In this document: piece after piece, positions 8,155 to 53,750 of the stretch
How positions within the stretch are numbered: position 1 is the first letter of the stretch
Layout: each line of letters opens with the position of its first letter
Assembly: GCA_012295275.1 (NCBI GenBank)
Contig: CM022671.1
Coordinates: forward strand, 5,766,001 to 5,830,000
Length of the DNA: 64,000 nucleotides
Direction: 5' to 3'
DNA from: Chrysomallon squamiferum
Lineage: Eukaryota > Animalia > Mollusca
Notes under the pieces: model-generated
Databases searched by the model: none
Told to the model about the DNA's origin: nothing
The model's input: the letters and a program-made list of their open reading frames with translations, nothing else
Program-made: the position numbers and the translations under genes

Positions 8155-8187
<33 letters not shown>

Positions 8188-11608: not shown

Positions 11609-13491
11609 ATGATTTCTACTTTGAGAAAAGCTGATTGGGAACCTCAGACCCAATGTTCAAAAGTTGTGGTGGATGGTGTAGGAGATTTTTTTTCTGAATC
11701 AGAAACAATGCAACGAAAAAAATCAGAAAAAGAAAGACTGGATACATTCTGGAACTGGCCATCATCGTCATACCAAACACCGAAGTCCCTCGCCAAAGCG
11801 GGATTTTATTATACCGGAATATCGGATCGAGTACAATGTGCATTTTGTCACGGGGTTTTAAAGAACTGGCTACCGTCAGACGAACCCATGTCAGAGCATA
11901 AACTACATTTTCCATCTTGTCCATTCGTGAAAGGCGAATACGTAGGCAATATTCCCATGGCAGAAGACATGCAAATAGAAGAAAACAGACTGGCCTCGTT
12001 TTCGGCATGGCCACGAGATCGACGCCAAACGCCGAACGAACTTGCTCGTGCTGGTTTTTATTATCTTGGCGACAGCTTCAAACCGGACCGGGTGAAGTGT
12101 GCATACTGCCAAGTCAGACTGTACGACTGGATGCCAGGAGACGATCCATGGATCGAACACGCCAGAGCCTTTCCTAGATGTCCGTACACGAAATTATGTC
12201 TTGGCCAGGATTTTATTGACGATATTCTGAAGTCAGGGACGGAACCACACCAAAGGTAATTACTTTTTTGATTATTTAGTAACTGATTTGTGTTAAAGAT
12301 TAACAGGAGATTTTTACTTTTATTAATAACTAAATAAGAGTGGATTAAATACTTGATGATTATTTTGACTTTTTTTTTTCCAGTCAAACCGAGTATTATA
12401 GAACAAACAGTCTCATTGTATAAAAAATAGTATAAAAATAGTATAAAAATTCACTTCTGATTTATTGAAGAGAAATAAATGAAAAATATGCACATAAAAA
12501 AATAAAGATCAAAACATGGGCAAGCATAATTTTCTTAATATTAAATATGACAACAAAACAACAATAAATAGATTAATAATAACTAACAAAAACCAAATAA
12601 ACATTTTAATGAACCAAGTAACATTTAAAAGCAGTGCTCCTGTGTTATGTCTGTGTGGATGTGTATACGTGCATATTTGTATATTTAAAAAAATGCAATA
12701 CCAAAATACCAACTGTTATTATGAAGATCATGTGTATGATGATGAGTGTACAGCAATATAACAGAAATAGAATAAACTACCTAACCCAAAAATTAAGAGT
12801 GTAAAATAACATAACTAGAAATACAAAAATATCTGAACACACAAAGGTAAGAGTTAAAATGTGATATTAAAAACTAACATTTCGTTATACTTATTATTCT
12901 AGTAATCGGGCAGTTTTCACACCTCAAAGTTCACAAAATTCAGCATCTCAGAACACCCCTAATAATGTAGAAGTTGGAAACCAAACAGTGAATTATGAAA
13001 ACAGGAGATCAGAGAGTGGAGTGAGAAAAGCTGCGAACAGCAGCCAGGTTCAAGCGATGTTGGAGATGGGTTACCCTCGAGATTTAGTCCAGAATGCTGT
13101 GGAATGGAAGATCAGAGAAACAGGAACTGGATTCGCGTCTGCTGCTGATCTGGCTGCTCACCTTTTAGAAATGGAAGTTGAGACAAGCACAGTGTCACCG
13201 AGCAGTAACCAAGTCTCTGTAACAAACCAAACAGCACCACAATTGTATAATCCAAGCCAACAGTCCACTTCTACAAGTGAACAGCAGTCTACTCCTGCAC
13301 GTGAACAACAGTCTAGTTCTTTAAGCACGTTGCAAGAAAGATATCTCTGTAAAGTGTGTATGGAAAATCAGCTTCAAATGACATTTTTGCCCTGTGGTCA
13401 TCTTGTTTGTTGTGGTCAGTGTGCGCTGGCTATGGAAGTGTGTCCAATCTGCCGAACTGGTATTACTGGAATGGTGAAAACGTATTACTGA
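11609..13491 (+). CDS. Inhibitor of apoptosis protein (BIR-BIR-UBA-RING), copy 2, ~411 aa
   Basis: Exons 11609-12255 and 12903-13491. Same structure as copy 1 with ~8 amino-acid differences, none in the BIR domains. Confidence 0.97.
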
Positions 13492-13509
13492 TCACAACGC
13501 ATCTTGAGA

Positions 13510-13680
13510 CCAACAGTCCAAGACAGGAACCCAAACAACAGTCCAAGACAGGAGTCCAAACAACAGTCCAAGACAGGAATCCAAAAACACTCAAAAACAG
13601 GAGTCCAAACAAAAGTCCAAAACAGGATTATCTTCCAGCAGGATTCCAAACAAAAGTCAAAACAGGAAAAATCTTCCAGT
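13510..13680 (+). repeat. ~25-bp minisatellite in the IAP copy 2 3'UTR
   Basis: Same unit as 5636-5833 with a different copy number and variant order. Confidence 0.88.
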
Positions 13681-15172
13681 GAATAATATTAATGGATATT
13701 AATGCTGAACTATTGCCAAACTATATCATACACACATGATAGAGGTATGTGTTTGTGAGTGTGTGTGTGTCTACTAAATCAAATTTTATGCTTCTGAACC
13801 GTAAATATTGTGTGGTAAAGTTTGGCTAAATATATATATTTAGAGATACTTATAGCAGACATATCAGTCCTGACCTCAATAGGATATATATATATGTATA
13901 TCAAAATTCAGTTACTGTTTGTTATTGTTAATGTTATGAAAAACATTAAATAAATAAGTGTCACACAGGAACTATTGGTGGTTCTAAAGACTAAATACAT
14001 CTTATATTCCAATCACTCACAGTGAATTCACAAAGACTGGTTATGTGCTTTGTTAGTAATTAATCAGCAGCAGTTCAGTTCGTAAAAGTCAGATAATATT
14101 TAACTTGCATGCTACATCCTAGTTTATCCACATAGCACATCAATAAAGTCATTTAAAACATTGTTAATATTAGCAAGATACACATTTAAAGTTTTACACA
14201 ATAAAAAAAATTAAATTAAAAATATATATATATGACATTATAAAATACATAAATATGTGTCTGTGAGTGGTTTTTTTTTTTAACACTAAGTGTTGTTGAT
14301 CACTAAGAAAACAATTTCTTTTAATTATAAAACGCACAAAAACTGAACTGCCAACCCTGTATGTCTTAATATAATTGTTTCCTTTTAGTTACTGAATTAA
14401 TGTTGTTATTGTTTTAATAAAAATATTTAAAATTGATTTTGAAGTTTTTGCACTGTTTGTTGTAGATAAAACAGACTGACAATGCATGCGGTGATGTCAC
14501 TGATGTATGGTTTGTCCTGGTAAAGGTGAGTTACTGGGCACCAGACATTTTGTTACATGAGTGGTATCAATAGTTTATAAAATTTATTATAATGTAACAA
14601 GGTTTGCACAGGTTTTTGAAACTGGAAATTCAACACCTGTGTGTGTTCTTGTATCCAGTATAAGCATGAATTAACTGTAAACTTGTGTAACTGGATAAAA
14701 CAAAAAGTAGAATACAGCACTGCCAGTGTGCATCATCTGACGTGAAGTCATTTTAAGCTGCTGTTGTAAAGTTGTTATTAGTGTCACGTAATATGTAGTA
14801 TTACTGTGATGACGTGGGTATGAAAAAAAAAAAAAAATATTTTCAAAAGATTCAAAATTTATTCTGTGGAAAAATAAAATGCATTTTAAGTTTGTTTAAA
14901 AAAGAAACCCCCAAAAAACACCACAAACTAAAACTTTCTCTTTTTTTAAAAAAACACATTTTGGGATGATTTGTTTGATTATGATTATGCTATTTTTTTT
15001 ATCCACAAAATCGAGCATAGTCAGTTGAGAGTGTATTGTTTCCAGTCAGAAGACACTCAGTTTGGTTTTACTTCTGGCAAGACATTTTATTCTGAATAAT
15101 GCACACACTGAGTTTTTATCTTGTACGGATTATAATATACATGATTTTTAACAAAGAATTGTTAGCATGCAT

Positions 15173-24793: not shown

Positions 24794-24840
24794 CTAAATT
24801 TCGAGTTCTTTCTTCAAAAACTGGAAATAATAATAATAAT

Positions 24841-24873
<33 letters not shown>

Positions 24874-25312
24874 AAATACAAGAATATAATAATAATAACG
24901 AAATTAACAATAATAGTAACAACAATGATGATAATAAAAGAAAACCAATAATAACAACAGCATAATAATAATAACAAACTCAACAATAAAAACAATATAA
25001 TAATACTAAGAACAACAACAATAGCATTGACATTAACAATAACAACAATGTTAATAAAAATAAAAACAACAACAATAACAACAACGATAATAACAATAAC
25101 ATCTTTTACTAAAAACATTTAAAAAAAAAAAAAAAAATTAAATTAAAGGTATCTGTTTCAGTTATGATGTAAGTGTTTTCCCATGAAGAGTTTACAAATA
25201 CTATACTGGCCAGTCCATAACAGAATAACAACAACTGATACATTAACATACCGGTATGGAATATGAAATAAACTTGTGAGTGTAATCTTTTGACAGATCT
25301 GAAAATATAAAA

Positions 25313-25347
<35 letters not shown>

Positions 25348-25761
25348 ATAGATAGATAGATAGACAGACAAACAATGGCAGAAATCAAAGAGACTCTGAC
25401 GATCATGACGACAACAAACAAACAATGACGCAATTAATAAAATAGTTTTTCCAGTTACATTTATATTGTATTCAATAAATTCATTCAAAAACCAGCTTGT
25501 ATTATACTTACGATCTAAATACGTAAACAGTTTAATATAACCCAGTCTGTCCAGTAGGGCGTTCAGATTTCCGGTTTCTGCGGCCGCCAGAAGTTCAAAG
25601 GTTATGACCTTTTCATGTTCCGGTAGGGATGAGAAAAATGGCGCCTGCTCAATATCGTCAATGAGACTAATAAATGAAAACTGCGTTTCCTGTGAGGGCG
25701 GAATAGAGGCACCGTTTACGAAGACGAAAAGAAAACCCAAGCACAGAAACACTTTTATCAT
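24794..25761 (-). CDS. Gene A: small secreted protein, signal peptide plus one shared helical 'Y' domain, ~107 aa
   Basis: Exons 25761-25512, 25298-25252 (47 nt) and 24820-24794, all GT-AG and in frame: MIKVFLCLGFLFVFVNGASIPPSQETQFSFISLIDDIEQAPFFSSLPEHEKVITFELLAAAETGNLNALLDRLGYIKLFTYLD|HLSKDYTHKFISYSIP|FLKKELEI*. Confidence 0.88.
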
Positions 25762-25884
25762 GATGTTTTCTGAAATGTAAATATTAATATATCTTATGTC
25801 AGTTATTTATTTAATAATTTGCGCCATTTTTGTTTAGACGCAATTTGGTTTTATTTTATTTTTTATTTTATCAGTATAAATAGT

Positions 25885-25957
<73 letters not shown>

Positions 25958-26228
25958 CAACAACAACAACAACAATGTGAAATACATGCACGCACATAAA
26001 CATGACATTTTACAACCAACCCTAAATTGGTATAATGTATGGATGAAAATAAATAAATAAATAAATAAAATTTTATTAAAAGGGGTGAAAAAAAATAGAA
26101 ATGGAAAAGAAAAAGAATTTATTTATATTGTTTACGGGTATCTCCGTTCGGGCTTATATCAATTATACATGATATTTTTATTTTTTATTTTTTTATTTGT
26201 AATTCTTTTTTAATATTATTTATTTATT

Positions 26229-26291
<63 letters not shown>

Positions 26292-26885
26292 GTTAATTAA
26301 GCATCTAAAACGTATTATTCTCTATGTAAATATATACATTACGTTCTTGAACCCGTAAATTTTCTTCACAGTTGTTCCACGCGTTCTGCCTGATAAGTCC
26401 GCTTTTGGAAGTGGCACGTGACAAATTCACAGCTTTCCTGTCATAAGAGAAAACTATCAAACAGAAGAACTGTCGGTCTAGCAGAGTTTTCAGATCACCA
26501 TAGTTTGTCGTGTTTGCGACAAGCTCAAAAGCAACACCAAGATAATAATTGAAATACACGATTGATAGTGTTAGAATAAAGAAATGTTTTGTTTCTGCTG
26601 ACAGAAGGTCAGTGTCTTGAAATTATCAACAGCACTGAAAGTTCAAAACTAATGATCAGTACTTGTATGCGTTCGTACGTATGTATTTATGTGTGTGTGT
26701 GTGTATATATATGATTGAATGTAAGTGTATGTATGTATTTATGTATCTGTATGCATGTAATGTTCATGAATGTTCAAAATTAATGGCATCAGTATGTTTT
26801 TGTTTATATGTGTGTGGTTTAGTATTTAAATATTCTCTATGTATATACGTCTGAATAGACTCTATTTAACGCACTATGTCACGTG

Positions 26886-26960
26886 ATGCCGTGACGAGTC
26901 GAACGTATGACACCCAGTCGCCCGCACTCCGAAGGCGGACGATGTTACCATTTGGCCATC
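26886..26960 (-). mobile_element. tRNA-derived SINE head (degenerate)
   Basis: The minus strand has an A-box-like TGGCCAAATGG and a B-box-like GTTCGACTC at tRNA-like spacing, but no convincing cloverleaf. Confidence 0.5.
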
Positions 26961-27060
26961 AAGACAAAGAAAACAGTGTGAATAAAAACAAGTAAAAGAA
27001 AACGTTTGAGAACGCTGTTAAAATACTTGAAGAATCAGAGTTCTCTTTGTTTATTCTTAC

Positions 27061-27165
27061 CTTGCTAGAGTTGTATAGTATTCAGATCATTCCTTTCTTC
27101 TAAAGTCTTCTACTAATCAGAATTACGGTGCATGCACGCCATTTATAGGCCAGACGATAAGTACC
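27061..27165 (-). promoter_or_regulatory. Gene A TATA promoter and non-coding exon 1
   Basis: TATAAAT at 27147-27141, an adjacent GATA motif (GATAAG ~27157), an Inr-like TTAGT ~30 nt downstream and donor AAG|GTAAGA at 27061/27060. The acceptor lies 8 nt before ATG 25761. Confidence 0.6.
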
Positions 27166-27558
27166 GCACCAGTTTAACCAGCGACGCTTAATCTTAATTT
27201 TCATTATTTTTGACTTTCACAACATCATATTTCATTATGGATGACGTTACGACGTCGTAACTTCTCCGATACGTATGCGTCGGTGTATACAGGTGAAAAG
27301 GGTGTGATAAGATTTTAATTCAACGGTCTGTCGATGTTTGGATTGCAGACAGAGTAAGTTGGGTAGATAATAGTTTTAAAATAGATTTACGTCTTTTAGT
27401 GTTGACCAGAATGGAAGACCAGTCAACTCCACACCCATTTGCTTTAGGCGTTTACGGTTCATTTTCAAAAATATATATTATTATTAAACTTGTATTCTAA
27501 ACATAGAATAAAATGTTTAGAAAATGTTAACATTAGCAACAAAGTGTCAGATATAGAA

Positions 27559-27612
<54 letters not shown>

Positions 27613-27734
27613 AGAGAATTGGCCAGCACGACCTTTTGTAATAACTTTACTTTCACTAACATTAATGTACTTCATTACTAACTGCCTCCTTTATTTATTA
27701 TTTTTATAATATATGACTTTAAGATAATGTTTAT

Positions 27735-27832
<98 letters not shown>

Positions 27833-28063
27833 ATTAAGGTGACTAATTACACTCCATTATGTAAATTCAAGCAAACAAAACCCAGAAAGGTTACGTCGTA
27901 CATTTTCTAATCTAGATTGTCAAACTTCGCAAACACGCTTTAGTTAATTGCTGTTATTGTTGTGATTGAAAAGAAAAAGGTAAAAGGGTGCAGTTATGGT
28001 TGTAGTTTATTTATGATACAGGTACAATATTTTTTGTTTCACGAGTTTTAAAAATTAGTAAGT

Positions 28064-30851
28064 TTAGTCCAGTGGTGTGTTGATTCCTTCAGCTCTTAAA
28101 CTCTGCAAAGCAAAAAATAAATAAATAAATAATACAGAAACAACATCAACAAAAATAACTACAACCATAATAATAATAATATAATAATAATAATAATAAT
28201 AATAACAACAACAACAATATGATTAACAATAGCAAAAGAAACAACGATAATGATAATATTACAATAAATAAATAATAATAATGACGACAACAAGACAAAA
28301 CCAGAAAAACAACAATAATAAATACATTTAAAATGTTAATTGAAGTTATTATTTAACAGAAAAAGATTTGGTAAAATCATAATTTACTGACAGGCAAAGT
28401 TTATTTTTGAATAATTTTTTTTTTAAATAAGATTAAATAAATAAGTTAATGGCAATTTTATTTCTTTTCCCTTCTTATTCTTTTATTTTTTATTTGTTTG
28501 TTTATTTGAATGTTTGTTTATTTATTTATTTATTTGTTTGTTCATTCATTTTAAAGAAAATATTAGTTCTTGTTTATTTTTATCTTTTTTTACCGACAAA
28601 ACTAGAAATTTAGAAAAGGGAGATAATTCTACTTACAAGCGACAGAAACTGAAGAAAACGATGAAGGTATTTTATTGGCATATCTGTAATAATAATGATA
28701 ATAATAACAATAATAATAATAATAATAAAAAATAATAATAATAATAATAGTCAGAAGAAGAAGAAGAAGAACAACAACAACAACAACAACAACAACAATT
28801 GAAATCTAAAAAATAAAATATCTCAGCATATTAATACGTGTACACAAACTTGCGTATATGTTTATTTTTTCGTACGCTTATAGATACTCGGACCCTGTAC
28901 ATGCTACTACTCTATGACTAACTCACCATCTAACAAAATAAAGAGACGCTCCATTGTTTCAGGCTCTAGAAATTTGTGCAGTTCGCACTTCTCCCCCGCC
29001 GCCAGGATCTCGTACATAAATATCTCCTCACCCTCGGGCAGCTCTTTGAAGTCGAGAGTGTCTATGAAGTGATAAATCCCAATCGTCTTGTCCAGGTCTG
29101 TGCGACACGAGATTGGTTGTGTGGCTTGTTTTCTCGTCCTCAGCTGAAATTAGTGAGAAATATATATATATTTTTTTTTTTATTTCTGCCGTGATGAAGT
29201 AGTTGTAGTAATAGTAATGGTCGTGGTGGTTGGTGATGGTGGTGGTGGTGGTGGTGGTGGTAGTAGTAGTAGAAGTGATGGTAATAGTAGTAGAAACAGT
29301 ATTGGTGATGGTGATGATAGTTGTGGTGGTAACAGTAGTAATAGTTGTTGTAGTGGTATTGATGATGATTATAGTGATGGTGGTGGTGGTGTAGAAGTAG
29401 TAGTAGTAGTAGTGATGGTAATAACTGTAGAAGTAGTAATGGTGGTGTTAGTAATAGTAGTAGTAGAAGTAATAATGGTGATGGTAGTATTAGTAGAGGT
29501 TGTTTTTGGTGTACTAGTAGTTATAGTTGTTATTGTACTACTAACAGTAAAAATAGTAGTGGTAGTAGCAATAGAGGTAGTAGTAGCAGTAATGGAAGTT
29601 GCTGGAGTATTTGTACCAGTAGTGGTAGTACAAAGAGTAACGGTAGTCACCGTGGAAGTAGTAGTAGTGTTGTAGGTAGTAGGAACAGCAGTAGTAAAAT
29701 ATCAGAACACGTTTTACTGCAGTATTGTGATGATTATGATGATGATATTATTGATAATGAAAATAAAATAGGTAAGTTATGTTATTAGTAAGTCTCAACA
29801 GTGATAGTGATGTAAATAAGACTACTAGTAGAAATAACAGAGGCAACTGTAGTACCGATAGAAGAAGAAGTAGTAGTAGTAGTAGTAGGAAAACATTTAT
29901 CTGTCTGTCTCTCTGTGTGTATGTATATGTATATATATATATGTATGTAATAGCTATAAATATATGTACGCATTCAACATACATGTGTTTATGTAGCAAC
30001 AAAATTTTACCTTCTTGATATCTTTGTAAATACTTTTCGCTATTTCTTTAATTTTGGGTGGGATTTCTGAAAATAATATATTAATGTTATAACTAATTAG
30101 ACTGAAATGAGAATAACAGAAAAAGCATAAATAAAAAGCCTGGTAAAATTCACAATGAAATGTCTTAAAAATGTATTTCAATACAGATTAACACAAATCA
30201 AACACATTCACACCACATACATCATACACACACATACACAGATCATTCACACATCCATACATCCTCACCCAGTCATTATTAAAATTAATAATATGAATAT
30301 TCCATACCATAATAACGCGTACGATACTTATTTTATCTCAGTGGTGCATAACTATGACGTAAATATAGCTCGTCTCCTAGTAATGATATGACGTCATGAT
30401 TGATTACCTTTTTTCAAAGTTTGCACAAAAGTCTTGATCAGTTTGTTCACTGACATTTTGTGCGGTCTTTGCAACAACGACTTTAAATCGTGGCTGGCTT
30501 CCTGTAAAATATCTTCGCTTTCTTCTTCTAGTTTTCGCTTTATATCATCGCTTTTGTGTCTGGAAAATAAATAAATAAATAAATAAAGAACGAAAGATAG
30601 AAAGAAATAAGGAAAGCAAGAAAGAAAGAAAGAAAGCAAGAAAGAAAGAAAAAAATGAATGTGATATTTAGGGGGAAAAAAAAACGAAAGAAAGAAAATA
30701 CTGACGTTAAATCTTCCAGCGACGTTATTGCCTTGGTAACCGCTGTCTTGACAACCTTACTGACCAGTCTGTCGATGACATCCTCTACGACATCCGCCTG
30801 GCAGACGGTCACGACGACCACACCTAACAACAGCAGCTTCGTGGATATCAT
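28064..30851 (-). CDS. Gene B: secreted two-module helical protein ('X' module + 'Y' domain), ~218 aa
   Basis: Exons 30851-30706, 30559-30408, 30066-30011 (56 nt), 29143-28927, 28683-28637 (47 nt) and 28102-28064; phases 2,1,0,1,0 are all consistent. Signal MISTKLLLLGVVVVTVCQA; C-terminus ...FKELPEGEEIFMYEILAAGEKCELHKFLEPETMERLFILLD|DMPIKYLHRFLQFLSL|SLRAEGINTPLD*. AATAAA lies ~55 nt downstream. Confidence 0.88.
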
Positions 30852-32006
30852 CGTTCAGTCTGTTAACAACAAAAAATGTCTCGGCAGTTTCACGAAAAAG
30901 CACGAAGTTTTACGATTGTTGTATTAACAGATATAACTTCTAGGTTGTCGTACTTCTTATCTTTGCCACTGTTGCCATAGAAACAAATTTGCAAATCGGT
31001 TTGGGAAAGTGTGTTATTATTATGTTTTAATTTTACAAATATAACTAATATTTTGTTTATTATTATTTTTTTTAAAGTTATACTGTAAAATATTTAAAGT
31101 CCATTTAAATAATAATGAATGAATGAATAAATTAATTAAAAATAAAATTCATTCATTTATATTATTATATTTTTTATGTTTCTGTTTACTTTTTTAAATT
31201 ACTGATTATTTAGAATTCAATAAATATATTTCCTGACAGTTATTTTTTTTTATATTATTATTATTGTTGTTGTTGTTGTTGTTGTTCTTATTAATAATAA
31301 TAATAATTTATTAATTTATTAATTAATAAAACTAGTGTTTCTATTTTTAAATAAACATCTACAAATATGACAGTATAGTTATTCACCTTTGTACCTACCT
31401 GGATTAAAAGACAGGTAAGTTAGATCTCACATTTTAATAATTTCTAGTAGTCACTAAATTTATTTAAATCATTATTTGTTTTCTGACAGTTACAATTGCT
31501 GTTGAACACGTGGATAGTTAACAAAATGAATCTACAAACAATTGTTCATCTCAAAGATTAATGTTTTTAGTACAAAAAAAAATCTTAGAATTAAAAGTCC
31601 AATCATGTCTTATAACTGGTGAAAATTTCTAGTTTGATTTACAACTTTTTCATCTCAAATAGATTTTTATAGATAGAAGAAAGATAGATGAAAAATCTTA
31701 GAACAGACAGAAAATAGATTTGTTTAACTGGAAAATAGATAGATAGATAGTCAGATAGATAGATAAATAGACAGATAAATAGATAATAAATAAATGGATG
31801 GACAGTTGAATGGGTGGATAGATAGAGAGAAAGAAAGAACGAAAGATAGATACAGACATTTTCATTATCATCATTACATTCTTCATGTTCGTTGGTTTAT
31901 CATTATCATCGTAACAACAACAACAACAACCAACAACAAACAAAATAATAGACAACAACAACAATAACAAAATAAAAATAATAATATTAATTACTTATTA
32001 CTACTG

Positions 32007-32046
<40 letters not shown>

Positions 32047-32548
32047 AACTGTTATTATTATCATTATCATTATCATAATTACTTTTAATATTATTATTAT
32101 TATTATTAAAATTATTCTGTTAAGCATTTTATCGTGTGTAAGTCACAAATGGCCACAGATTAGCCTACAAACACGATTAAAACTGAACAGACGACATTTT
32201 ATCAGTTTTCTTTCATCTTTAATCTGGAATCGGTGAAGAGCGGTTGATAAATGTGACCTACTTTCTCGCCACCTGTCAAAAGTTCCATGCTGATCACGTG
32301 ACCTCCACGCTTTGTAGATTATGAATCAGTAAATGGGTCGAAGGTGTGAGAAAATATTTAACAGCTGTCCTAATATGCGAAGTATTATATTTTAAGTCTG
32401 ATTTATACTGATATTTTTTTTATTATTATTGTTAGTGTTTCCGATATATTTTACTACAAATTTATTCATCGATCCATCCTTCATCAGTTAATTTGTTCAA
32501 TAATATTCGTTCGTTTCATTTTTATTTAATTTTCAATCCTTCTTTCCA

Positions 32549-32587
<39 letters not shown>

Positions 32588-32593
32588 GGTTTT

Positions 32594-32636
<43 letters not shown>

Positions 32637-33906
32637 CTCTCATCATTCTTTTATTCAGTTGTTGATTTTAATATTTTAATAATTTCTAGTAGTCACTAAA
32701 TAATTATTTAAATCATTATTTGTTTGCTTGCCTGATCGTTAGTTGTTGCTGTTATTGATTTTTATATACAGATTTGTTCACAAAATAAATGTACAAGCAT
32801 ATGCGAACTTGGGCACTGAAAATAATTCAATGATGCAAAGATGTATATGTCTTTTACTTATTTGTTTGGTTTTGTGGTTGTTTCCAGGAAGCTGATTATG
32901 TAAAACTAATCTAGTTTACACAGTTTAATGTGCTAACATCTACGAAATATCTATACACATAATTAAATCTCTATTACATTTGAAATTTACATAATGTACT
33001 GAATGGGAAAGTTTAAAATAGACCCCCCCAAAAAAAAAAAAAAAAAAATAAAATTAATATTATTAATTATATTTAAAAAAAAAATGAAAAACGAAGTCAA
33101 ATAAAAAAACAAACAAATAAATAAATAAATAATATTAATAATGAAAATAATAATGATAATAATAATAATAATAATAGTAATAAAAAATAACAATAAAAAT
33201 AAATAGATAGAAATTTATAAAGTTATAGAGTTATATATTTAACATTTATTTTATTTTATTTTGTTTTGTTTTGTTTTAATTTTAATTTTAATTAATGCAG
33301 CATTCAGACTATATAAAATTATATTATAATATTATACTGTAATATTTTCATGACAATCTTATATTACAACATTACATTTTAATATTTTTTATAATAATCT
33401 TATATTACAGTATTTTTACATTTTAATATTTTTATAACAATCTTACATTACAATATTACAGATTAACATTTATTATAATAATCATATATTATAATATTAA
33501 ATTTTATTAAATTTTTATAACCATGTCCAAACGGTTCATTTCTATACAATTGTTAAATTACCTTAAACGTCTTTTTAACAAATTACTTATTTTTTGGCTC
33601 CACGTAGAAAATAAAAATCATCGAATTAACCAAAATTATTTGATATTTCACAACTGATACGAAATCGATCATAATTATAAAGCTACCTTATTTCTATTCC
33701 AGCTGTCCTTGGTAATTTATGGATCAGTGATTATAGAAATAAAATAAATCGGGTCATTTGTGTTACGAATGAAAACTAAAACTAAAAAGAAAGAATTATT
33801 AATTTTAATTTATTTATATATTTTTCAGTTACAAAGATCCAAAGATTTATTCCTGGCCTCGTCTTGAAATGAATGTTTTTAAAACGTATCCAAAGTATGT
33901 CTCTTT

Positions 33907-33988
33907 TCAGTGCACTATTTCTCTCTCTAGTTTCAAACCCTGCAAAATCAAACGTTGTAATGTTTTATTAACATACCTGTGATTGTTA

Positions 33989-34079
<91 letters not shown>

Positions 34080-36271
34080 GCAGAATAAGTGTTCAGATTA
34101 AAAATAATTCAGAAAAATGGTGCATAATTAATAATAATGTCTTCTGCATTGCTATATTTCCAGTTATTCACATTTCATTTAAAAATTTTCATTTTTTTTT
34201 TTTACTTTCTACACCCGAACTGAATTAATTTTAATTCAGTACATCCCAAGAGTAAATTGGTCCTTTCAAAAAATGATTAAAACCGTTCTTACCTGTAACA
34301 GAAAAGCAAGAAACTGCTCTATGTATTTTGTAGGTAAATCTGCAATTAAACACGTTACAAAGTGAAATTTTAAAAATATATAGACACAAACTGAAATATA
34401 CTAATAAGCTTACTCTGTGCTGTATATAGTTACAATAGAGGTTTTTCTCTAAAAATATGTTTGCCTGTTGTCTTTTTTATTTTTATTTTTTATTTATTTT
34501 ATTTTATATAGGGCCTCACAATCTAATATTTTTTCTTAAACTGATATACAATTCTCTGTTGACTTTTATAAAAGTTCCCCACAGCTTTGGGTCTCGTGTT
34601 ATCTAAATACGACATCACCATCATAATCAACATCGTCATCACAAAAAAACTATATAGATTTAATAACTTTATCAAATCCTGGACACTTACTGAATATAAA
34701 CTTGATAAACCAGACACTTACTGTATATAAACTTTATAAACCAGACACTTACTGTATATAAACTTGACAAACCAGACATTCACTGTATACAAACTTCACA
34801 AACCAGACACTCACTGTATATAAACTTCACAAACCAGACACTTACTGTATATAAACTTGATAAACCGGACACGTACTGTATATAAACTTGATAAACCAGA
34901 CACTCACTGCATATAAAATTGACAAGCCAGACGCTCACCGTATATAACTTTGATAAACCAGACACATGCTGTGTACAAACTTGATAAACCAGACACTTAC
35001 TGTATATAAACTTGATAAATTTTTCAAAGCCCAGGTGCTCGAGGACTTCGTTAATCTTGTGACTCTGGACTCCGGCCGCCAACTCGTAGACGGTCATTCT
35101 GTCAGAGACTGGAAGCTTCTGGAAATATCTCTCGTGTTCAATCGCGCTGAACAGAGCCAGAATCTCTTCCAAAGTCACCTTCGTGCCGCTCTTAGGAGTT
35201 GAGACAGGTTTGGAAGAAGTCCTGGTTTCAGCCGTTGATGCGGTAGAGACGTCCGTAAGCGACGGTGACGTTGCTGATGCGGTAGAGACGTTTGTAAGCG
35301 ACTGTGACGTTGCTGATGCGGTGGAGACGTTTGTGAGCGACTGTGACGTTGTTGATGCTGTAGAGACGTTTGTAAGCGACGGTGACGTTACTGATGCGGT
35401 AGAGACGTCTGTAAGTGACTGTGACGTTGTTGATGCGGTAGGAAAGTTTGTAAGCGACTGTGACGTTGTTGATGCGGTAGAGACGTTTGTCATTGGTGGT
35501 GACGTTGCCGATGACGAAGGTGTGTAGGTCACGTATTGTTTAGTTGATGTTTCAAAAGCAGTGGATGATGATTCGCCCGAGGGAAATGACGTTGTTGCTT
35601 TCGTAGGTATCGTTGTCATCGATTCGCCAGAATCCGTTGATGACGTCCCTTCATCTGTCATTCCATACTGTTTTGTCACCCCGCTGGAGTATTTTGATAT
35701 CATGTCCATGGTTGTAAGATCAGAATCTTTTGTTTCCATGGAAACTGTACTTGTACTGTCTGGAAACGTAGAGCTTTGGTAGCTGGGTTGTTCGGATGGT
35801 TTTGAATATTCATAAGTTTTGCTAGTTTCCTGCGGCATTGGTTTGGTAAACAATGTTGGAGGTGCTTCAGTTTTCAATGCAAAAGCCCCTGATGGAGTTG
35901 GCACTAAATGTTTTGGAACGTCAAGAGATTCTGTAGAAATAATCTGTAATAAGAAAACATAAGAAAATATTTTCTTCGTACGAAAAGACAGAAAATTATC
36001 AGAGGCAGACAGAGAGACAGGCAGAAAGTCACATAGAGAGATAGAAAAACAGACAGACAGAGAGACAGACAGACAGATAAATAGACAGACAGATAAGAAG
36101 AATTATGGATACTCAGAAAATCAGAAAATGACTAAAGGAAAAATGGAAAGAAAAACCTACAGAAAGGATAAGAAAGAAAGAAAGAAGGACAAAGGGATAG
36201 ATGGAAAGAAGAGATTGTACCTGTGATATTACAGACAGTGTTAAGATCACTTTCACAACAGATGACGTCAT
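33907..36271 (-). CDS. Gene C: secreted mucin-like Ser/Thr-rich protein with a C-terminal 'Y' domain, ~357 aa
   Basis: Exons 36271-36221 (MTSSVVKVILTLSVISQ, signal), 35943-35001, 34339-34293 (47 nt) and 33939-33907. C-terminus ...FQKLPVSDRMTVYELAAGVQSHKINEVLEHLGFEKFIKFIY|NLPTKYIEQFLAFLLQ|GLKLEREIVH*. A likely non-coding exon has its donor at ~37005. Confidence 0.88.
34660..35020 (-). repeat. 31-bp minisatellite made of the gene C exon end plus splice donor
   Basis: Unit (minus strand) TTTATCAAGTTTATATACA|GTAAGTGTCTGG, ~11 copies. The first copy overlaps the exon ending at 35001. Confidence 0.92.
35235..35490 (-). repeat. 39-bp coding tandem repeat (13-aa TNVSTASTTSQSL, ~6.5 copies)
   Basis: Visible in both DNA and translation of gene C; several units carry an N-V-S sequon. 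Confidence 0.93.
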
Positions 36272-36428
36272 GGTTCCAGTCTAAAATGTAAAAAAAGGAT
36301 TGTAAAATACATTTTCTGAATTCAAGACATTTATCTTTTTGACACTGAAATGTTGAATCACGAACTGAAAACTCAGATATAAATAGACAGTAATATTTAT
36401 GTTTCACCTCTACAAATAATTCAGAACA

Positions 36429-36466
<38 letters not shown>

Positions 36467-36476
36467 GATAAACAAA

Positions 36477-36507
<31 letters not shown>

Positions 36508-36615
36508 TATTTATTTATTTGGGGGGATTTCACACATAAAAATCGAGAAGAAAATGAACAAATATTTTTAATTTAAAAGAAAACAAACAAACAATCGAAT
36601 AAATAAACAAACGAA

Positions 36616-36662
<47 letters not shown>

Positions 36663-36937
36663 ATAAATAAATAAAAAAAATATTAACAAAAAATACTAAT
36701 ATAAAAAATAAAAGAAAAAGAAAGAATCAGAAAACAAACAAACAAACCATAAAATGCGCTTTTCCTTAACCAGAACTTTACACCAACGTTATGATTGTTA
36801 AGCAAACGTATGCATATTTTTAATATGCCAAATCTTTTTTGAAGGTAACCTATTTTATTCAAACAAAATATTATTGTTTAAAATCTGTAACACTTAAATT
36901 ATAAATATATACATATATATTGCTGTTTCAGTAAAAC

Positions 36938-36975
<38 letters not shown>

Positions 36976-37198
36976 ATAAAACAAAATAACGGAAAGTGGC
37001 TTTACCTGTAGAGAATCCGAGTTTTAGAGCTTCCAGTAGGTCACGTTATCAGAGGACGATGTCACGTGGTCTGTTGGGGAAAAACGCGGGAGTTTTTAAT
37101 AATTTAAAATTAGGGGTAGTTTATATCTGATCATAAATACAGAAATAAATTGAATTTTACTAACGACGAGGTGTGAATTTTATATTAATGAAATAGTA

Positions 37199-37257
<59 letters not shown>

Positions 37258-37509
37258 CAATTTGAAAAGAGCGCAAAACAACAACAGCACCTACAGACAA
37301 TAGGTACACTGAGTACGTAGATACACAAAGGGAGAGAGAAGTGAGAAAGATAGAGATATTATTAGACCTAAATTAAGTTAGGAGATTTCTAAAAGTGTAT
37401 GTATGTTTTCGTATGTTGTTTGTATGTATATGAACGTATGAATATATTTATTTGTATGCATGTGTGTTCATGGTTATATATGTGTGTGAATATAAGAATT
37501 TGTATGTAT

Positions 37510-37670
37510 GTATTACCTATATAGGCTATGATTAACTTTGTGTGTATGTATTATTTATATAGGCTATGATTAACTTTGTGTGTATGTATTATTTATATAG
37601 GCTATGATTAACTTTGTATATATGTATTATTTATATAGGCTATGATTAATTCTGTATGTATGTTTTATTT
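37510..37670. repeat. 38-bp minisatellite
   Basis: TATATAGGCTATGATTAACTTTGTGTGTATGTATTATT, ~4 copies. Confidence 0.85.
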
Positions 37671-38173
37671 TGTATGTATGTATGATTTATATTGGCTAGA
37701 ATATGATTAATCTGTATTCGCCATAATTAAAGAAATGAATTTAATTATTATATTTTCAAATACAAGTCGAAATTTACTTACAAATCAAGAGTCATCCATC
37801 CTGTCTCTTTATGTCTATATGTCTGTCTGTCTGTTTGTCCGTCTGTCTCTCTGTCTCTCTATCTATATTTTTTTCTTATCTGTTTCTTTTTCCCTCCCCC
37901 CACGCACAGATGTATTTTTTTCTTCTTGTTTGTGTTTATGCCTAGAACAAAGAACAAAAATATTTAGTATAAGTTCGTTTTTCAAAAAAAAAAAAAAAAA
38001 AAAACAGTATCCATACTTAATGAGATCATTTCTTAACTTGATTTTAAAAATCACTTGCTCAGTCAAAGTTAATTATTAACGTTTAGGCAACAGCGTCTCT
38101 TATTCAAAGCCCGTGACTGTGATTACATCTTTCGAAATCTCCATACTATGCTGTTGAGTTTCTCATTCTGTAG

Positions 38174-38216
<43 letters not shown>

Positions 38217-38781
38217 CTTTATCTCAAACTGCCGGCAAATCACGTCCGTTTCACCCATACACCATATTATTTTATTAAAGTACATTCTTCATTTTTATTT
38301 ATTTCTGTTAGTTTGCAAAGCAGAAAATAATAAAAATTTCTTTATAGTTTAACAGATTATTATTCCTTTTTAGTTGGTTCCATTTATTTAGTGTTTTTGG
38401 AATTTTCTAACAGAATTAGTTAAACCGTTTCGATAAAACAGGTTGTGTGAACATAGTTTTAGTCAAATCATGTCAGTGTTCCCCCCACCATAGGTTAATG
38501 CATCGACCGTGTTTGTATAAATTAGAAAGCAAACTGGATTCATATATGTGTTATCTTAACTAACTAAATAAATAAATGAATGACTAATTGAATGGATAAA
38601 TAAGTAAGTACGAAAATGAATAAATAAAGAAAAACAAAATGAATAAATAAAGAAACAAACAAATAAATAAAAAAAATTAAAGACAATACATAAACTTTCA
38701 ATATTTATTTATTAAAATATTAAATTTAGAATGATGTGAACACAATATTTGTAATGAAATCTCTTTGAAATCGCTTTGAAA

Positions 38782-38806
38782 TCATTTCGTGAACTGCAAA
38801 ACATAA

Positions 38807-38840
<34 letters not shown>

Positions 38841-38903
38841 GTAACAATAACAACAACAACAATAAAAACTAATAATAATAATAATAATAACAACAACAAC
38901 AAC

Positions 38904-38935
<32 letters not shown>

Positions 38936-39361
38936 TAATAATAATAATATGCCTCTCATTTTCTTTCTCTCCCTCTATCTCTCACTCTTTCTATGAACAT
39001 ATCTCTTGTGTTTCCGCGTATTAATGACTATATCATTTTTGTGTCTAACTATTCAGTGTATTAACAATACTGTCTGACAAATATCAACATATATTAAACT
39101 ACCGTTCTTGATGATGTCATAATTTCATCGTTATATTTCAGTATCGCATAATTATTAATTTACCTTAGACAGCAGATGAATAATTCCGTTTAACTTTTCT
39201 GTCGTTTTGTGTGGAACTGCTGCAATAATAAAAAAAAAATCCTTTGAAATGTATTTATATATATATATAAATCATTGATGGTCATAATAAGAATAACATA
39301 GAGTGCCCGAGATTAGAAAGATAGAAGGTGGCCTTACGGATTACATATACATACACACACA

Positions 39362-39403
<42 letters not shown>

Positions 39404-39649
39404 TACCTTTGGGACTGTTCACTATTGCGTCTTTAATGATGTGTTTCGCTAGTAACGGGATATTTTCCTGCGATGGCGTGATGCCGTACATTTTAGCAAG
39501 ATGTTTGAAAGAATTAGGAAGACGAAGTTGTTCTGGATGATGACGTCGCAAGTCTTTTTTCGACAGCCGATTGAAGTCGAACTTTTCTTTGATAGTCTTC
39601 TCAGCTTTGCTCAGCAGTTCCTTGCTGATCAGGTTTTTTACACTGTTTC

Positions 39650-39715
<66 letters not shown>

Positions 39716-39992
39716 TGATAACAATGATGATGATGATAATAATATTGATAACAACAATATCAATTATTATTATTATAAAAAATAAATACAGCAACGATGA
39801 TGATAATAATAGTAGTAATAATAATAAAACAGAAAAACCATTGATAATGATAATTATTATGATGATGATGATGATGATGATTAACGTAACAACTGCACAA
39901 CTAATATTAGAACTATTAGATAAACTTAATTCTGAAGAAGTAAAGTATGGACAGAAAGAGAAAGAGAGATGTGAAAAGAAAGAAAAATCATT

Positions 39993-40031
<39 letters not shown>

Positions 40032-41187
40032 TAGATCATATTAAATATACTAAGATAGATATGTGTTTTTCTTTAAAGTTAGGGAAGAAAGAAAACTTAC
40101 ATATCTGACTTAGCTTTTGTTTCTATATCTTTAAGATTAGCCTCCAGGGAGTTCACTAAGTCAAACACAAATCTCTTTACTGGTAACATCGGCTTCGAAT
40201 CGCTTCGTTTGTGAACAACATCGCTGATGACGTTAGTCAGATCAGTCCCAGTAGCGAGATCTAAAACATCGCCAATCCCCGCTTCAATAGCATTCAGCGG
40301 CTTCTCGATCGTTTCCAAAACCTCGCTCCAAATGTCTCGTCTTCCATTGCTGGTGTCCGAACTCAGGAGCTCGGATGCTGCTTCTACGATCGCCAGGGTC
40401 ATTTGGAACCCTATTTGTTCTAATGGGCTTATGATTTTGTTCCACGTTTCGTTGAAAACATTTCTCTTTTCTCTCCCTTTAGCATCATTTACAGCTTCGT
40501 GTAAAATTTCTTTGCAGCTTCAGTCAGAAGTTGTACAGTTTGCTTTGCTGCAGCTTTTAAGGGCTCCGTGAAACGCTGCCAGACGTCGAATACATTTCGT
40601 TTGCCGATAGCCGATTCGTGATGCTGGAGGTCGCTTAGTAAAACCCCGACTAACGCCTGGACAGATTTCTCGCCTGCTATTTGCAGAGGAACCTTCAGGC
40701 TCTTGAAAAAGTCCTCAAAAATATTTCGTTTATCGAGTTTCGAAGGTGTCGTCTGCTTTATACCTTGTCTTGCTTCAGACTTTTGCGTTTGTTTCATTTC
40801 TTCCATCTCAGCGATCATTCTCATGATATTCGTCAAATCGTGGACTTTCTGTATCCAGATGTTGTCTACATCCCTTCTTCGTTGTCCCACGGCAGTTTCG
40901 GCTGCTTCGTGGATCGTCATGGCGGCCACATCACCCAGAGTTAGTATCGTCTGCTTCCCAATCTGTTGCAGCGGGAGTTTAATTCTACCCCACAGTCGGT
41001 GAAGAATGCCTCGTTTCTCCGTATTCTTGAAAAATTCATGTGACTCTATATTTGGTGCGAATGCGCGAGAAATTTCAGATTGGGAAAAATAATCTTCTTG
41101 ACTTTTAGTTTTCAAAACATTAGCAGACGATTTTATCAGGAAGCACGACACAACGGCAGCCAAGAAAAATAGAGCACCAGACTGCAT
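38782..41187 (-). CDS. Gene D: secreted polyprotein precursor with dibasic-site-delimited amphipathic peptide repeats and a C-terminal 'X' module; ~465 aa if a 1-nt deletion at ~40512 is corrected
   Basis: Exons 41187-40101, 39648-39407, 39219-39164 (56 nt) and 38793-38782 (FTK*); phases 2,1,0. Signal MQSGALFFLAAVVSCFLIKSSA; KR/RR/RRR sites every ~40-47 aa. ORFs 40489-41187 and 40097-40402 join if one A is added at GCA AA[A] GAA ATT. Confidence 0.85.
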
Positions 41188-41599
41188 CGTTCAAATACTG
41201 AAACTAAAACGAAACAGAAAAAAAAATTTTTGGCTATCTTTTAAAGGAAACGATATACCTTAATACTTCTGTTAAGGGGAAGTACCTAGAACGGGATATT
41301 ATCTCAACAGGTGCATCGAAAGGTTCGATTCTGTGATCCACCATGTCTAATGGATACGTTATATAGTCAGTAAAATTATATTCATGCTCAAAACTAAACT
41401 AATGATAAAAAATAATAAAAACATTAAAAACATTAAAAATTTAAATATTAAAAATATTTGAGGAAACAAAATAATAAAAAAAAAAAAAAAAAATTCAATT
41501 TAAAAAAAAAAAAAAAAAAAAAAACAGTTGTTTTACTTTTCATAATTATTTCTTTAATAAAAATTCTTCAAATATTTTCAAGAGTTATGAACAACTTAC

Positions 41600-41690
41600 C
41601 TCCAACGTGTAACGTAAATTTTTCACAGTTTGACATAAATTTGAGAAATCTGTATTTATAAACGAATTTTGAGCTGTGTTGAAGATAAGT
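41600..41690 (-). promoter_or_regulatory. Gene D TATA promoter and short non-coding exon 1
   Basis: TATAAATA at 41660-41653, a GATA motif AGATAAG at ~41682, and donor GAG|GTAAGT at 41600/41599. The acceptor lies 10 nt before ATG 41187. Confidence 0.6.
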
Positions 41691-50133: not shown

Positions 50134-51628
50134 TCATCCCACACTGTAGACATTATTATAAACTTTGCCATTGAAGGAAATCACTTGTTTTGGACGAATT
50201 GCTAACCCTCCATTAGCAACCATTTCTTTGTAACAGTTAGCATAATGTCTGTTTGCTTCTGAAATATTTTCATCATTGATGTATTTATCCAGCTGTTAAA
50301 AAAAACAAAAACAAAAAATAACCATAATAACCATAATAATAATAATAATAATAAATTAAATTCTATGACCAAAACAGCTGAATTTTTTCAAAAATCAGCT
50401 TAATTTTTCAAAAATAAAGTTATTAAAACTCTTGACTTATATACAACCGTTAAATGAAATAAAAAGCTAATACACAGAATGACTATATTTTAGTATTTTC
50501 TAGAATCTTTTATGTAAATAAACATTTTAATTCTATTCTTAGTAAAATAAAAAAAATAAAAATTCATACTGGATAGATTGTAGCTTAATGGTGGAATGTT
50601 TGTATAATTACCACTGATCGTTAATCTTTTGTCTTTAATGAACCCACTGAGCATTTTCTAAATCCTATCAAAATTATATTTGTTTTGTTTAAAAATACCT
50701 CAAAACAAGTATATATTATCATATATTAATCATATAAATTAATTTTCTTTAAAGCACCCAGTTCCAGTAAATATGAAAGTATATATTAACATTTGTATAT
50801 TAATTATTACAAATTAATTATAAAATTAATGAAGAAATTTTAAAATATTTATTTATGATATATCTGTTAGAAGACATTTTAAAATATTTATTTACAAGAT
50901 ATCTGTTTGAAAATATTTTAAAATATTTATTTATTATTACATATACAAATTAATTCTCATCAACAAATCCATCAGGCATTTTTCTAATTCAAGTCAGTAT
51001 GAGATAATATTTTAAAGATGTTAATGATTATTACGTACTAGACATACAAATCAGAGACGTACACTCGACAGAACCTACCTCCATCCAGCAACATTTAGAA
51101 ATTTCTCTCTCGCAAGCGTTGATGGTTTCATTCAGAGGTTTCATGACACAGATGAAATAAATATCTGAACAGCCAAAGCGGTAGTTGTGTTGGTGTCGGA
51201 AACAAAGCAGACACTCGAACTCACACCTGACTCCCGTTTCTTCAAAGACTTCTCTTTTAGCAGTGTCTGCTAGGTTTTCACCTGGATATTAAAAAAAACG
51301 CAACAACATTAATACATAACATCACCAAAAAGAAAATATTCTATGTGTTTTTGTTGTTTTGATAAAAGGGAATGGGAAAATGCTTGTACCTTTTTCAGCA
51401 TGGCCTCCAGGCAGTTTCCAGTGGATTTTGGATGCGTATTTTTCCTGAACAGCAAGAATCTCGTTTCTGCTGTTTATGACAAACCCAGCAACACCTACAA
51501 TTGGAAAACAATGTGGATTTCTTTTTTTTCTTTTTTTCTTTTTTTGTTGTTGTCAAAATCATCATGTATTATTACTACTGTTTTTGTTATTATTATTCTT
51601 GTTTTTGTTATTATTGTTATTGTTATTG

Positions 51629-51659
<31 letters not shown>

Positions 51660-53163
51660 CATCAACATTAATACTATTAGTATTACTCCTGTTATTAATT
51701 ATTATTATCATTGTTATTGCTGTTATTATTTATTATTAAGGTTAATTTTTACAGATATGAACAAAAAATATATATATATATATATTTTAAAATTCATTTA
51801 GTGTTTTATCATTACAATATTTAACAGATTTTTTTTTCTAACAGACAATTCCTCTTTCACTCTTAATAGAGGTTTTACTGATACTGTGTTACAGTACAGA
51901 TACACATTACATGGGCAGATAACTCATTCTACTGATCACCTTTCACTGGACAATCCCCATAATATAATATTAATATTATCATTGGGAAACTGGAGAGAAA
52001 CTGTGGTAAATGTATATGTGAGAGTGTGTTTCTGTTTTAGACACTGAAACTGTCTCACCTATGTACTGGTTGGCATATTCTGGAATTCCATTTGATTCCT
52101 CTTTAGCAAGCCACCGAGTCAACATGACATAACCAGACTGAGCATGATGAAAATCAAATCCTAACTAGCAGAGAAAAATTATAAATCTATGATTTTAATT
52201 AGAATAAAAAAATAAAAAAAAGATACATAAAATAAAAAAAAAAAAAAAAGTAAAATAAAAATAATATAAATAAATAAATAAATAAAAATAAAAACAATAA
52301 AAAGAAGTAAATCTTTTCTAAGTCACTGTATCCTCAATGTAAATAAAGTCCACAGTAATGACTGTTCTTACTGCATCTTCTTGTTTTTTTCTCAGTCCAA
52401 CCAATGCTCTCTTTAGTTTATCAAGTCATGGTTATGTGTTGTGTTGCTGTAATCATCATTATACAAAAAAATGTGTGTCTTGACATTAAATTACTTTTTA
52501 TATTAAAATATAAGGAGTATTATTCAATCTCTCTGATGAATTACAATAAAAAAAACAATTAAAAAAAACAACAGAACTATGAGTTACCTCCACTAATTTT
52601 GGAACTAGTTTTGACTGTTCAGTTTTCACTTTTACCCATAATCCTCTGACCCCTGCTTTCTCCCATTCAGAAACTGCAGCTGTAATATATAAATAATTAT
52701 TAGTATTTTAAATGTGTTCCTTTGATTAAAAAATACATTAATTAATTAATTTTAATCTAAATATTATTCAATTTATTGTACCAGATGTTTCACCAATTTG
52801 GTGTCAGTAAGTATTTCCTTAAATATATTCAAGATAGTTTAATATTTTTTGTTTTGAATAAATTTTGCTAATTTTTTTTTATTATTTTTTTTTTTGATAT
52901 AAAAATAATTAAAGTTAGTCACTTTACCACTCGAACATACTCCAACCATCAGCAACAAAGGATTATTTATATGCATACCCATAGGTGGGAAAAAATGATA
53001 GACTATTTTTGGTAAGTTGATGTAGGCAATGTTTGGAATGTGAAACAGTTCAACTGGATGTAATGGAGAACTGATCCTGGAATCTGAATCAAGTGTTCTA
53101 ACTACTGAGCTTTATTATTTTCAGTACAAGAACACAAATGGTAAGAGGAAAAACAAAAAATAA

Positions 53164-53194
<31 letters not shown>

Positions 53195-53750
53195 TAAATG
53201 AAAAAAAAATTTAAGCATCTGAAGAGAATTTATTTATTTATTTATTTTATTATTATAATTTTTTTAATTTTACAAACCTTTAAGTTTTTCTTGGAATTCA
53301 TCTTCAGACATATTCTGTTTATCACTTTCAATGATAATTCCATTATATCTACAATAAATTTAATTTTTCTTTTTACTGAAAGGATATTCAACTACCTTAC
53401 CAGAATGAATGAACAAATAAATGAATGAATAAAAAATATTTTAAATACTAACTTTTATTGTGTGATTATTACATGAACGGAAACTTGCTGCTATAAATCA
53501 TGGGTTGTTCTTATCAATTACCAGCAAGGATTCTTTTTGGGTGTGTATACTTTCCGACATACAGACTAGCACATACCACATCTTTGTCAAACAGATATGT
53601 GGAATAGTGGAATACAGATGTAGTGTTGTGTAGGAGTAAAGGCCAAGGATTTTAAACCCATTCTCAAGTTACTGATGTTTACATATATATATATATATAT
53701 AAAAAATAATACACACACCTGTCTTTTCTCACTGTAAAGCTTTCAGCCAT
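50134..53750 (-). CDS. NUDT6: Nudix hydrolase of the NUDT6 (pre-Nudix + Nudix) family, ~255 aa
   Basis: Exons 53750-53719 (alternative ATG 53759), 53348-53278, 52679-52588, 52164-52059, 51494-51390, 51281-51079 and 50292-50134, all in phase. Motifs: DRYNGI, GVRGLWVKV, LGFDFHHAQSGYVMLTRWL, PEYANQYIGVAG, Nudix box GGHAEKGENLADTAKREVFEETG and FGCSDIYFIC. Confidence 0.9.
52925..53115. mobile_element. Degenerate SINE-like dispersed repeat (related fragment at ~53480-53640)
   Basis: CAGCAACAAAGGATTATTTATATGCATACCC here and CCAGCAAGGATTCTTTTT...ACAGACTAGCACATACCACA at 53521 resemble one another and a gastropod SINE family recalled from memory. Not verified. Confidence 0.4.

Follow-up and report, generated by a model that had tools for sequence, protein, structure and literature searches.

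We analysed a window of 64,000 nucleotides from the mollusc Chrysomallon squamiferum, the scaly-foot snail (assembly GCA_012295275.1, contig CM022671.1, forward-strand positions 5,766,001 to 5,830,000; coordinates below are counted from the first letter of the window), in which four adjacent, co-oriented genes, here called A to D, occupy the minus strand within 24.8-41.7 kb. Genes A, B and C carry a helical domain, module Y, which recurs across molluscs, and gene D encodes a predicted peptide precursor restricted to one snail lineage. As far as sequence comparison goes both are new; their function we infer.

The window is AT-rich animal DNA (29.8% GC; the G. aegis genome averages 37.2%), with 43% GC in the exons and 26% outside them. 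When exons are joined by coordinates, the spliced frames of all four genes are open, with AG acceptors and GT donors, and encode 107 (A), 218 (B), 357 (C) and about 465 (D) residues. As the original prediction had described, a splice acceptor lies just before each ATG (8, 8, 9 and 10 nt across the four genes), TGAACGATG is common to B and D, and each N-terminus is hydrophobic (best 10-residue Kyte-Doolittle mean 2.4-3.1) and is predicted to be a signal peptide. Gigantopelta aegis has RefSeq counterparts of A (LOC121367314, 78/107 residues identical), B (LOC121367317, 117/207) and D (LOC121368787, 143/386), and because of these counterparts and the open spliced frames we consider the four genes, on sequence grounds, to be real. 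Candidate non-coding first exons were found upstream of the ATGs, with TATA boxes at 27,147 (A) and 41,660 (D). The features of the four genes are as follows.

27061..27147, minus strand: gene A, TATA box and candidate non-coding first exon, from sequence (donor GT at 27060)
25512..25761, minus strand: gene A, coding exon 1, predicted signal peptide and most of Y, ending in phase 1 (spliced frame; G. aegis match)
25252..25298, minus strand: gene A, Y exon of 47 nt (spliced frame; G. aegis match)
24794..24820, minus strand: gene A, terminal exon and stop (spliced frame; ATTAAA at 24729)
30706..30851, minus strand: gene B, exon 1, predicted signal peptide, then the first helix of X; ends in phase 2 at a GTCAGT donor (a candidate donor of the untranslated region (UTR) lies upstream at 31398)
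30408..30559, minus strand: gene B, exon 2, X (spliced frame; G. aegis match; comparison with run X1)
30011..30066, minus strand: gene B, exon 3 of 56 nt, end of X (spliced frame; G. aegis match; comparison with run X1)
28927..29143, minus strand: gene B, exon 4, basic linker, then Y, which has the cysteine pair of the B type (frame, relatives, tree)
28637..28683, minus strand: gene B, Y exon of 47 nt (spliced frame; G. aegis match)
28064..28102, minus strand: gene B, terminal exon and stop (AATAAA at 28011)
36221..36271, minus strand: gene C, coding exon 1, predicted signal peptide (candidate UTR exon donor at 37005)
35001..35943, minus strand: gene C, exon 2, Ser/Thr-rich stalk with 13-residue (39-nt) tandem repeats, then Y, phase 1
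34293..34339, minus strand: gene C, Y exon of 47 nt (spliced frame)
33907..33939, minus strand: gene C, terminal exon and stop (AATAAA at 33851)
41600..41660, minus strand: gene D, TATA box and candidate non-coding first exon, from sequence (donor GT at 41599)
40101..41187, minus strand: gene D, exon 1, predicted signal peptide, pro-region, peptide units and start of the X-like tail (G. aegis 143/386)
40211..41010, minus strand: gene D, six units of about 40-47 residues between KR/RR sites, five of the six with the aromatic-start, Pro-Leu-hinge pattern
39407..39648, minus strand: gene D, exon 2, X-like (G. aegis protein matched over the first ~20 residues)
39164..39219, minus strand: gene D, exon 3 of 56 nt, predicted only (length and phases equal those of B exon 3)
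38782..38793, minus strand: gene D, predicted terminal exon and stop, the least certain exon (AATAAA at 38713)

The G. aegis models of A and B include the small terminal exons, and the relatives give no support for the last two exons of gene D. The first donor of gene B, GTCAGT, is a weak site. A 31-nt unit repeated 10.9 times (34682-35019) covers the end of C exon 2 together with its splice donor, and the context of this donor recurs four times exactly within the repeat, so that alternative donors would be possible.

The Y copies of A, B and C are related to one another, as had been claimed (z scores of 14.0, 17.7 and 12.3, with 0 of 2000 shuffles in each comparison), and share identical intron phases and an exon of 47 nt. 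Module Y is a domain of about 80 residues with two near-invariant glutamates, E62 and E68, for which AlphaFold2, supplied with 59 sequences, gives six helices at a predicted local distance difference test (pLDDT) score of about 94; the predicted fold is a compact six-helix bundle. A profile search of 1.84 billion representatives returned 46 matches, one of which (P0012, a repeat protein with weak partial matches) is a likely false positive, and a second search added members. The named carriers are Mytilus, Mizuhopecten, Saccostrea, Pinctada, Littorina, Batillaria, Pomacea, Elysia and Gigantopelta, and by these matches Y is spread across gastropods and bivalves. It occurs singly, behind a Thr/Pro/Ser stalk, or as two to three tandem copies that are often histidine-rich and in several relatives have KR between them; each Y gene of the window has a single copy. 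Where matches stop at the codon of the phase-1 intron, S, R or G stands there in 17 of 19 cases, against 2 of 56 matches that continue, and since these residues are what read-through into a GT donor gives, the intron appears to be family-wide. The contigs that carry several of the full-length relatives are ~0.9-1.1 kb long and free of introns, which would be consistent with complementary DNA. P0034 and P0054, two tandem-Y proteins assigned to Digyalum oweni and Littorina saxatilis, are nearly identical; the Digyalum label is likely to reflect host carry-over in a transcriptome and gives a weak hint of gut expression.

That the modules belong to no recognised family, and that they form a modular secretory toolkit around an unrecognised domain, is supported by the Pfam, profile and fold searches. 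No Pfam family reached its cut-off for the A-D proteins and modules searched, a recurring MgtE_N match staying under it (best E 4e-4), and sequence searches of PDB gave no meaningful match for Y or D. Foldseek with the Y model returned 0 matches at E<=0.001, VIA listed only generic helical bundles for Y (best Z 6.7), with bacteriocin immunity proteins at Z 5.7-5.8, not over background, and the ESM Atlas gave no usable match; for a predicted model, this absence of a fold match does not by itself prove a new fold. Scans of metagenome contigs with P0013 and P0017 as queries found no loci. The Pfam family DUF4476, after which UniRef labels P0066, was not among the P0066 matches at E<=10. We found no paper describing Y or D by accession or Y motif in a search that mostly left subscription journals outside, and accession and motif searches were empty in the searched portions of the supplements of PMC11871041, PMC7142155 (12 of 13 files), PMC4094399 and PMC7333891. 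Module Y is thus undescribed in Pfam, PDB and the papers searched, and the relatives of Y and of gene D are automatic models that carry neither a domain name nor a function; LOC121367314, LOC121367317, LOC121368787, Mizuhopecten LOC110450103 and Littorina XP_070191534, for example, are by identity and tree orthologs or family members and are otherwise uncharacterised.

The cluster had been taken for a local expansion, which for A, B and C the phylogeny of Y contradicts. A tree was generated from 68 domains and 79 columns (few for so many rows), leaving out P0012 and domains with less than 75% profile coverage. The Y domain of A clusters with Pomacea (support 97/96), that of B with Elysia and Littorina (100/99) and that of C, on a long branch, with Littorina and Batillaria (92/93), and forcing the vent-snail A, B and C copies into one clade was rejected by the approximately unbiased test (p 3.6e-5; 59 of the 68 rows, identical ones collapsed). 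Since each gene groups with proteins of other gastropods, the trio is by this tree old, predating the split of these gastropod groups, and not a local expansion. The Littorina B-type and C-type genes are both assigned to one contig of 70.2 Mb. Synteny was to be examined as a check: the G. aegis orthologs of A, B and D all lie on one 96,789,575-nt contig and hence on the same chromosome, which does not imply adjacency, and one contig of 1,749,180 nt is given for both P0005, a fragment resembling C, and P0048, a protein resembling D. A further single-Y gene of G. aegis, LOC121385579 (P0042), is on another contig (35.4 Mb) and falls outside the A, B and C clades.

Gene C has the mucin-like stalk originally described, 248 residues long with 45% Ser+Thr, 8% Pro and 39-nt repeats, and the stalk is predicted to be O-glycosylated. 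Among the relatives measured, a T/S/P-rich stalk (fraction 0.33-0.54) is present in 9/9 C-type and 8/9 B-type proteins. Gene B and its G. aegis ortholog have at the stalk position a charged helical region, module X (T/S/P 0.19-0.21), and because all eight of the other B-type relatives measured have a stalk there (0.39-0.47), X is, on this comparison, a lineage-specific replacement of the stalk. X is predicted to form three long amphipathic helices (pLDDT ~70) followed by the basic linker; the B-type helices are amphipathic at p<0.01 in 4 of 8 cases, with one more at 0.011, and VIA again listed only generic bundles (best Z 9.4). Of the exon shuffling that had been proposed for the whole cluster, this exchange of stalk for X in B is supported. 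The similarity of X in B and D, stated at the outset as a shared module, is not significant (z 1.2, 254/2000 shuffles; z <=2.1 in anchored tests; hhalign probability 0.3%), and the link consists of intron phases 2-1-0 and the 56-nt exon (28/56 bases identical). From these a common origin of X in the two genes, and a derivation of the X of B from D, are plausible.

Gene D contains the KR-separated repeats that had been reported: its units are divided by KR/RR sites, about six peptides are predicted, and four of the units in the window are mutually related (z 4-14). Two length-limited searches, the second of which scored the best 7,992 candidates, returned only P0001 and P0064 as relatives, and D has so far been found, by sequence, only in vent-snail relatives. 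Both retain the dibasic sites and the unit pattern. The 11 units of the three proteins are 40-45 residues long; each begins with an amphipathic stretch rich in aromatic residues and, after a hinge that is Ser-Leu in one unit and Pro-Leu in the others, ends in a half rich in Ala, Gly and Leu. The N-terminal hydrophobic moment is significant (p<0.05) in 5 of 11, and one unit ends in Gly-Lys-Arg in all three proteins. We predict that the D precursor is cut at its dibasic sites into ~40-residue helix-proline-helix peptides, which on composition would be better placed among surfactant, lipid-binding or membrane-active peptides than among classical cationic antimicrobials.

In the window, the frame of D exon 1 is broken near 40,510, and together with the non-significant X link to B this raises the question whether D is in decay, or is unrelated to the Y trio and only happens to be its neighbour. 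We consider this most improbable. Contigs of run X1, an independent run that behaves as DNA and was compared with D exon 1 and B exons 1-3, do not have the break, and the G. aegis protein is continuous across the site, so that the break is likely to be an assembly slip or an allele. Furthermore, the 29 coding differences listed between D exon 1 and run X1 comprise 17 synonymous and 12 non-synonymous ones, which over ~240 synonymous and ~840 non-synonymous sites gives a ratio of non-synonymous to synonymous rates (dN/dS) of ~0.2 (one junction codon and 17 further differences left out); on these differences D is under purifying selection. The joint assignment of P0048 and P0005 to one contig also speaks against a chance neighbour. 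In B exons 1-3, substitutions relative to run X1 are synonymous in 3/3 cases and indels intronic in 4/4. Relative to run X1, exon 1 of D has differences at 30 or more of 1,087 bases and the three B exons at 3 of 354, from which D would be the faster-evolving or more polymorphic gene. From the RNA runs X2-X4 nothing aligned to exon 1 of D or to exons 1-3 of B, which counts neither way.

With its predicted signal peptide, its dibasic sites and the amidation signals at Gly-Lys-Arg, D would also befit signalling, as a peptide-hormone or pheromone precursor whose units have the length of CRF/NPF-class peptides, with the A-type Y proteins (~10 kDa) acting as water-borne cues like the mucus-associated proteins of abalone. 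This seems to us very unlikely, as D has no hormone match in Pfam and no Pfam or PDB match to neuropeptide or hormone precursors, and its conservation lies in the N-terminal amphipathic half while most neuropeptides are conserved at the C-terminus.

The tandem forms of Y bear on another possibility, a secreted lipid-carrier system of the gut or haemolymph. The polyprotein allergens of nematodes and Bla g 1 of cockroaches are helical lipid binders released from polyproteins, and Y resembles their units in being, by prediction, secreted and all-helical, single or tandem (two to three copies in relatives, KR between several) and associated with basic cleavage sites; X and the D units would be the counterparts of exchangeable apolipoprotein helices. 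X does have long amphipathic helices, apoA-IV is among the fold neighbours of its model (Z 8.6, rmsd (root-mean-square deviation) 3.3, 111 aligned), most D units are neutral or acidic, and one record of the tandem-Y Littorina protein is attributed to a protist that parasitises the Littorina gut. Nevertheless this carrier system is, in our judgement, possible but unlikely. Y gives no profile match to the allergen family, which is in none of three full Pfam match lists, nor among the 25 of 50 families listed elsewhere, gives no PDB sequence match and is not among the listed fold neighbours; ApoLp-III reaches only E 3.8 (8.1 bits against a cut-off of 36.3). The Z of 8.6 for apoA-IV is shared by unrelated bundles and lies within the background for helical bundles, and Y often sits on a mucin-type stalk, which suits an epithelial surface more than a circulating carrier.

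The explanation that we put forward, and to which we give an even chance, is that the locus is an old gastropod cluster of mucus-protein genes bearing Y, joined by the lineage-restricted D precursor, the products of A-D being co-secreted into a protective epithelial mucus coat. Proprotein convertases would cut D at its KR/RR sites into ~40-residue helix-proline-helix peptides, some of them amidated at Gly-Lys-Arg, and a cut at the basic linker of B would free X. The freed D peptides and X might then act as surfactants or antimicrobials by partitioning onto membranes or other hydrophobic surfaces, the D peptides binding lipid or the surfaces of microbes; Y would serve as a protease-resistant head, free in A and borne on a glycosylated stalk in C, and the old cluster would in this lineage have gained lipid- or membrane-binding peptides.

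Several known systems resemble parts of this scheme. Cecropin, pardaxin and PSM-beta types are helix-hinge-helix membrane-active peptides, and the D units would be analogous to them in length (~40 residues), amphipathic N-helix, Pro hinge and Ala/Gly/Leu-rich second half, but D has no Pfam or PDB sequence match to them and is a multi-unit precursor with a helical tail. The myticalins, linear antimicrobial peptides of mussels, are like D in signal peptide, dibasic cleavage, amidation signal and an intron just before the ATG, but have one strongly cationic, Arg-rich peptide per precursor, with >10% Arg in the mature peptide (PMC5577615). D shows the signal peptide and the dibasic and Gly amidation sites in sequence (cleavage being predicted), yet its helical units number about six and are for the most part neutral or acidic, with net charges of +3 to -8 over the 11 units of the three proteins, and it is not a myticalin-type cationic peptide. 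The CAMPs of Cornu mucus are built like C, with a globular C-terminal domain behind an N-terminal region rich in Ser and Thr, but end in lectin or fibrinogen domains, where C ends in Y and has no cysteine (PMC10475054); C is therefore not a CAMP.

A number of points weigh against the mucus coat. Gene C has the Pro/Thr/Ser-rich repeat stalk of gel-forming mucins but neither a cysteine nor a Pfam vWD or CK match, so it is not one of them. Amphipathicity at p<0.05 is missed by 6 of the 11 D units, and a clear positive net charge (+1 to +3) is confined to the first unit, the rest lying between 0 and -8 save one at +1; with units mostly neutral or acidic, D is unlike most antimicrobial peptides. 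The X homology between B and D fails significance, and the D ortholog of G. aegis has a distant LOC number, the shared contig not amounting to adjacency. Lastly, the neighbouring galaxin-like gene (20253-18830, minus strand; PF24748, E 7e-11), whose N-terminus is hydrophobic and whose first exon is basic and rich in Gln and Asn, points as much to shell matrix.

This gene, 4.5 kb away on the same strand, is one argument for regarding the products of the locus as matrix proteins of shell, periostracum or scale made by mantle or foot epithelium, with Y binding mineral or metal through its glutamates (in tandem forms, histidines). Galaxins are expanded to 10 copies in the scaly-foot snail (PMC7142155), and two galaxins are in its shell proteome with mantle expression, their identifiers not being mappable to the gene in the window. 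The near-invariance of E62 and E68 would agree with a binding role. We nonetheless rate shell matrix as rather unlikely, for Y genes are kept by Elysia, a slug that is shell-less as an adult, and the Y motif was not found in the searched parts of the shell-proteome supplements, which hold few or no sequences of the relatives. The Lottia threonine-rich shell protein (TRP/LUSP-15) was also compared, and its 5 published peptides (20.9% coverage) are, by eye only, unlike Y.

A bolder version of the mucus-coat proposal starts from an analogy. Legume NCR peptides and insect bacteriocyte peptides select or restrain bacterial symbionts, and symbiont-bearing peltospirids might likewise have rebuilt the ancient mucus cluster by exon shuffling into a peptide arsenal, in which the D cocktail and the helical module of B would select or restrain symbionts and Y would chaperone or neutralise the peptides. 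We hold this to be quite unlikely. If the D peptides do act on bacteria, symbiont management in vent snails would become testable at the bench; D yields a short list of synthesisable peptides in a lineage from which few peptides of host defence or symbiont control are known. The analysis is a well-founded discovery of a family and not of a new mechanism, function being inferred: it defines a mollusc-wide secreted domain with a confident model, which can now be annotated and tested in common snails and mussels, and describes an old three-gene arrangement of it.

Outside the cluster, positions 1-7153 and 8124-14960 form a tandem duplication of a unit of ~8 kb (~94% identity) with two near-identical genes, which from translation we take to be inhibitor-of-apoptosis proteins (BIR- and RING-like); from the sequence this is either a recent duplication or an uncollapsed haplotype. 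Two housekeeping-looking genes lie on the minus strand at about 50200-55300, presumably, from their translations, a Nudix hydrolase (NUDT6-like) and a release-factor-like gene with a GGQ motif. The plus strand has an acidic, low-complexity open frame of 661 residues at 57808-59790, and a minisatellite array with a unit of ~47 nt occupies 60976-62390.

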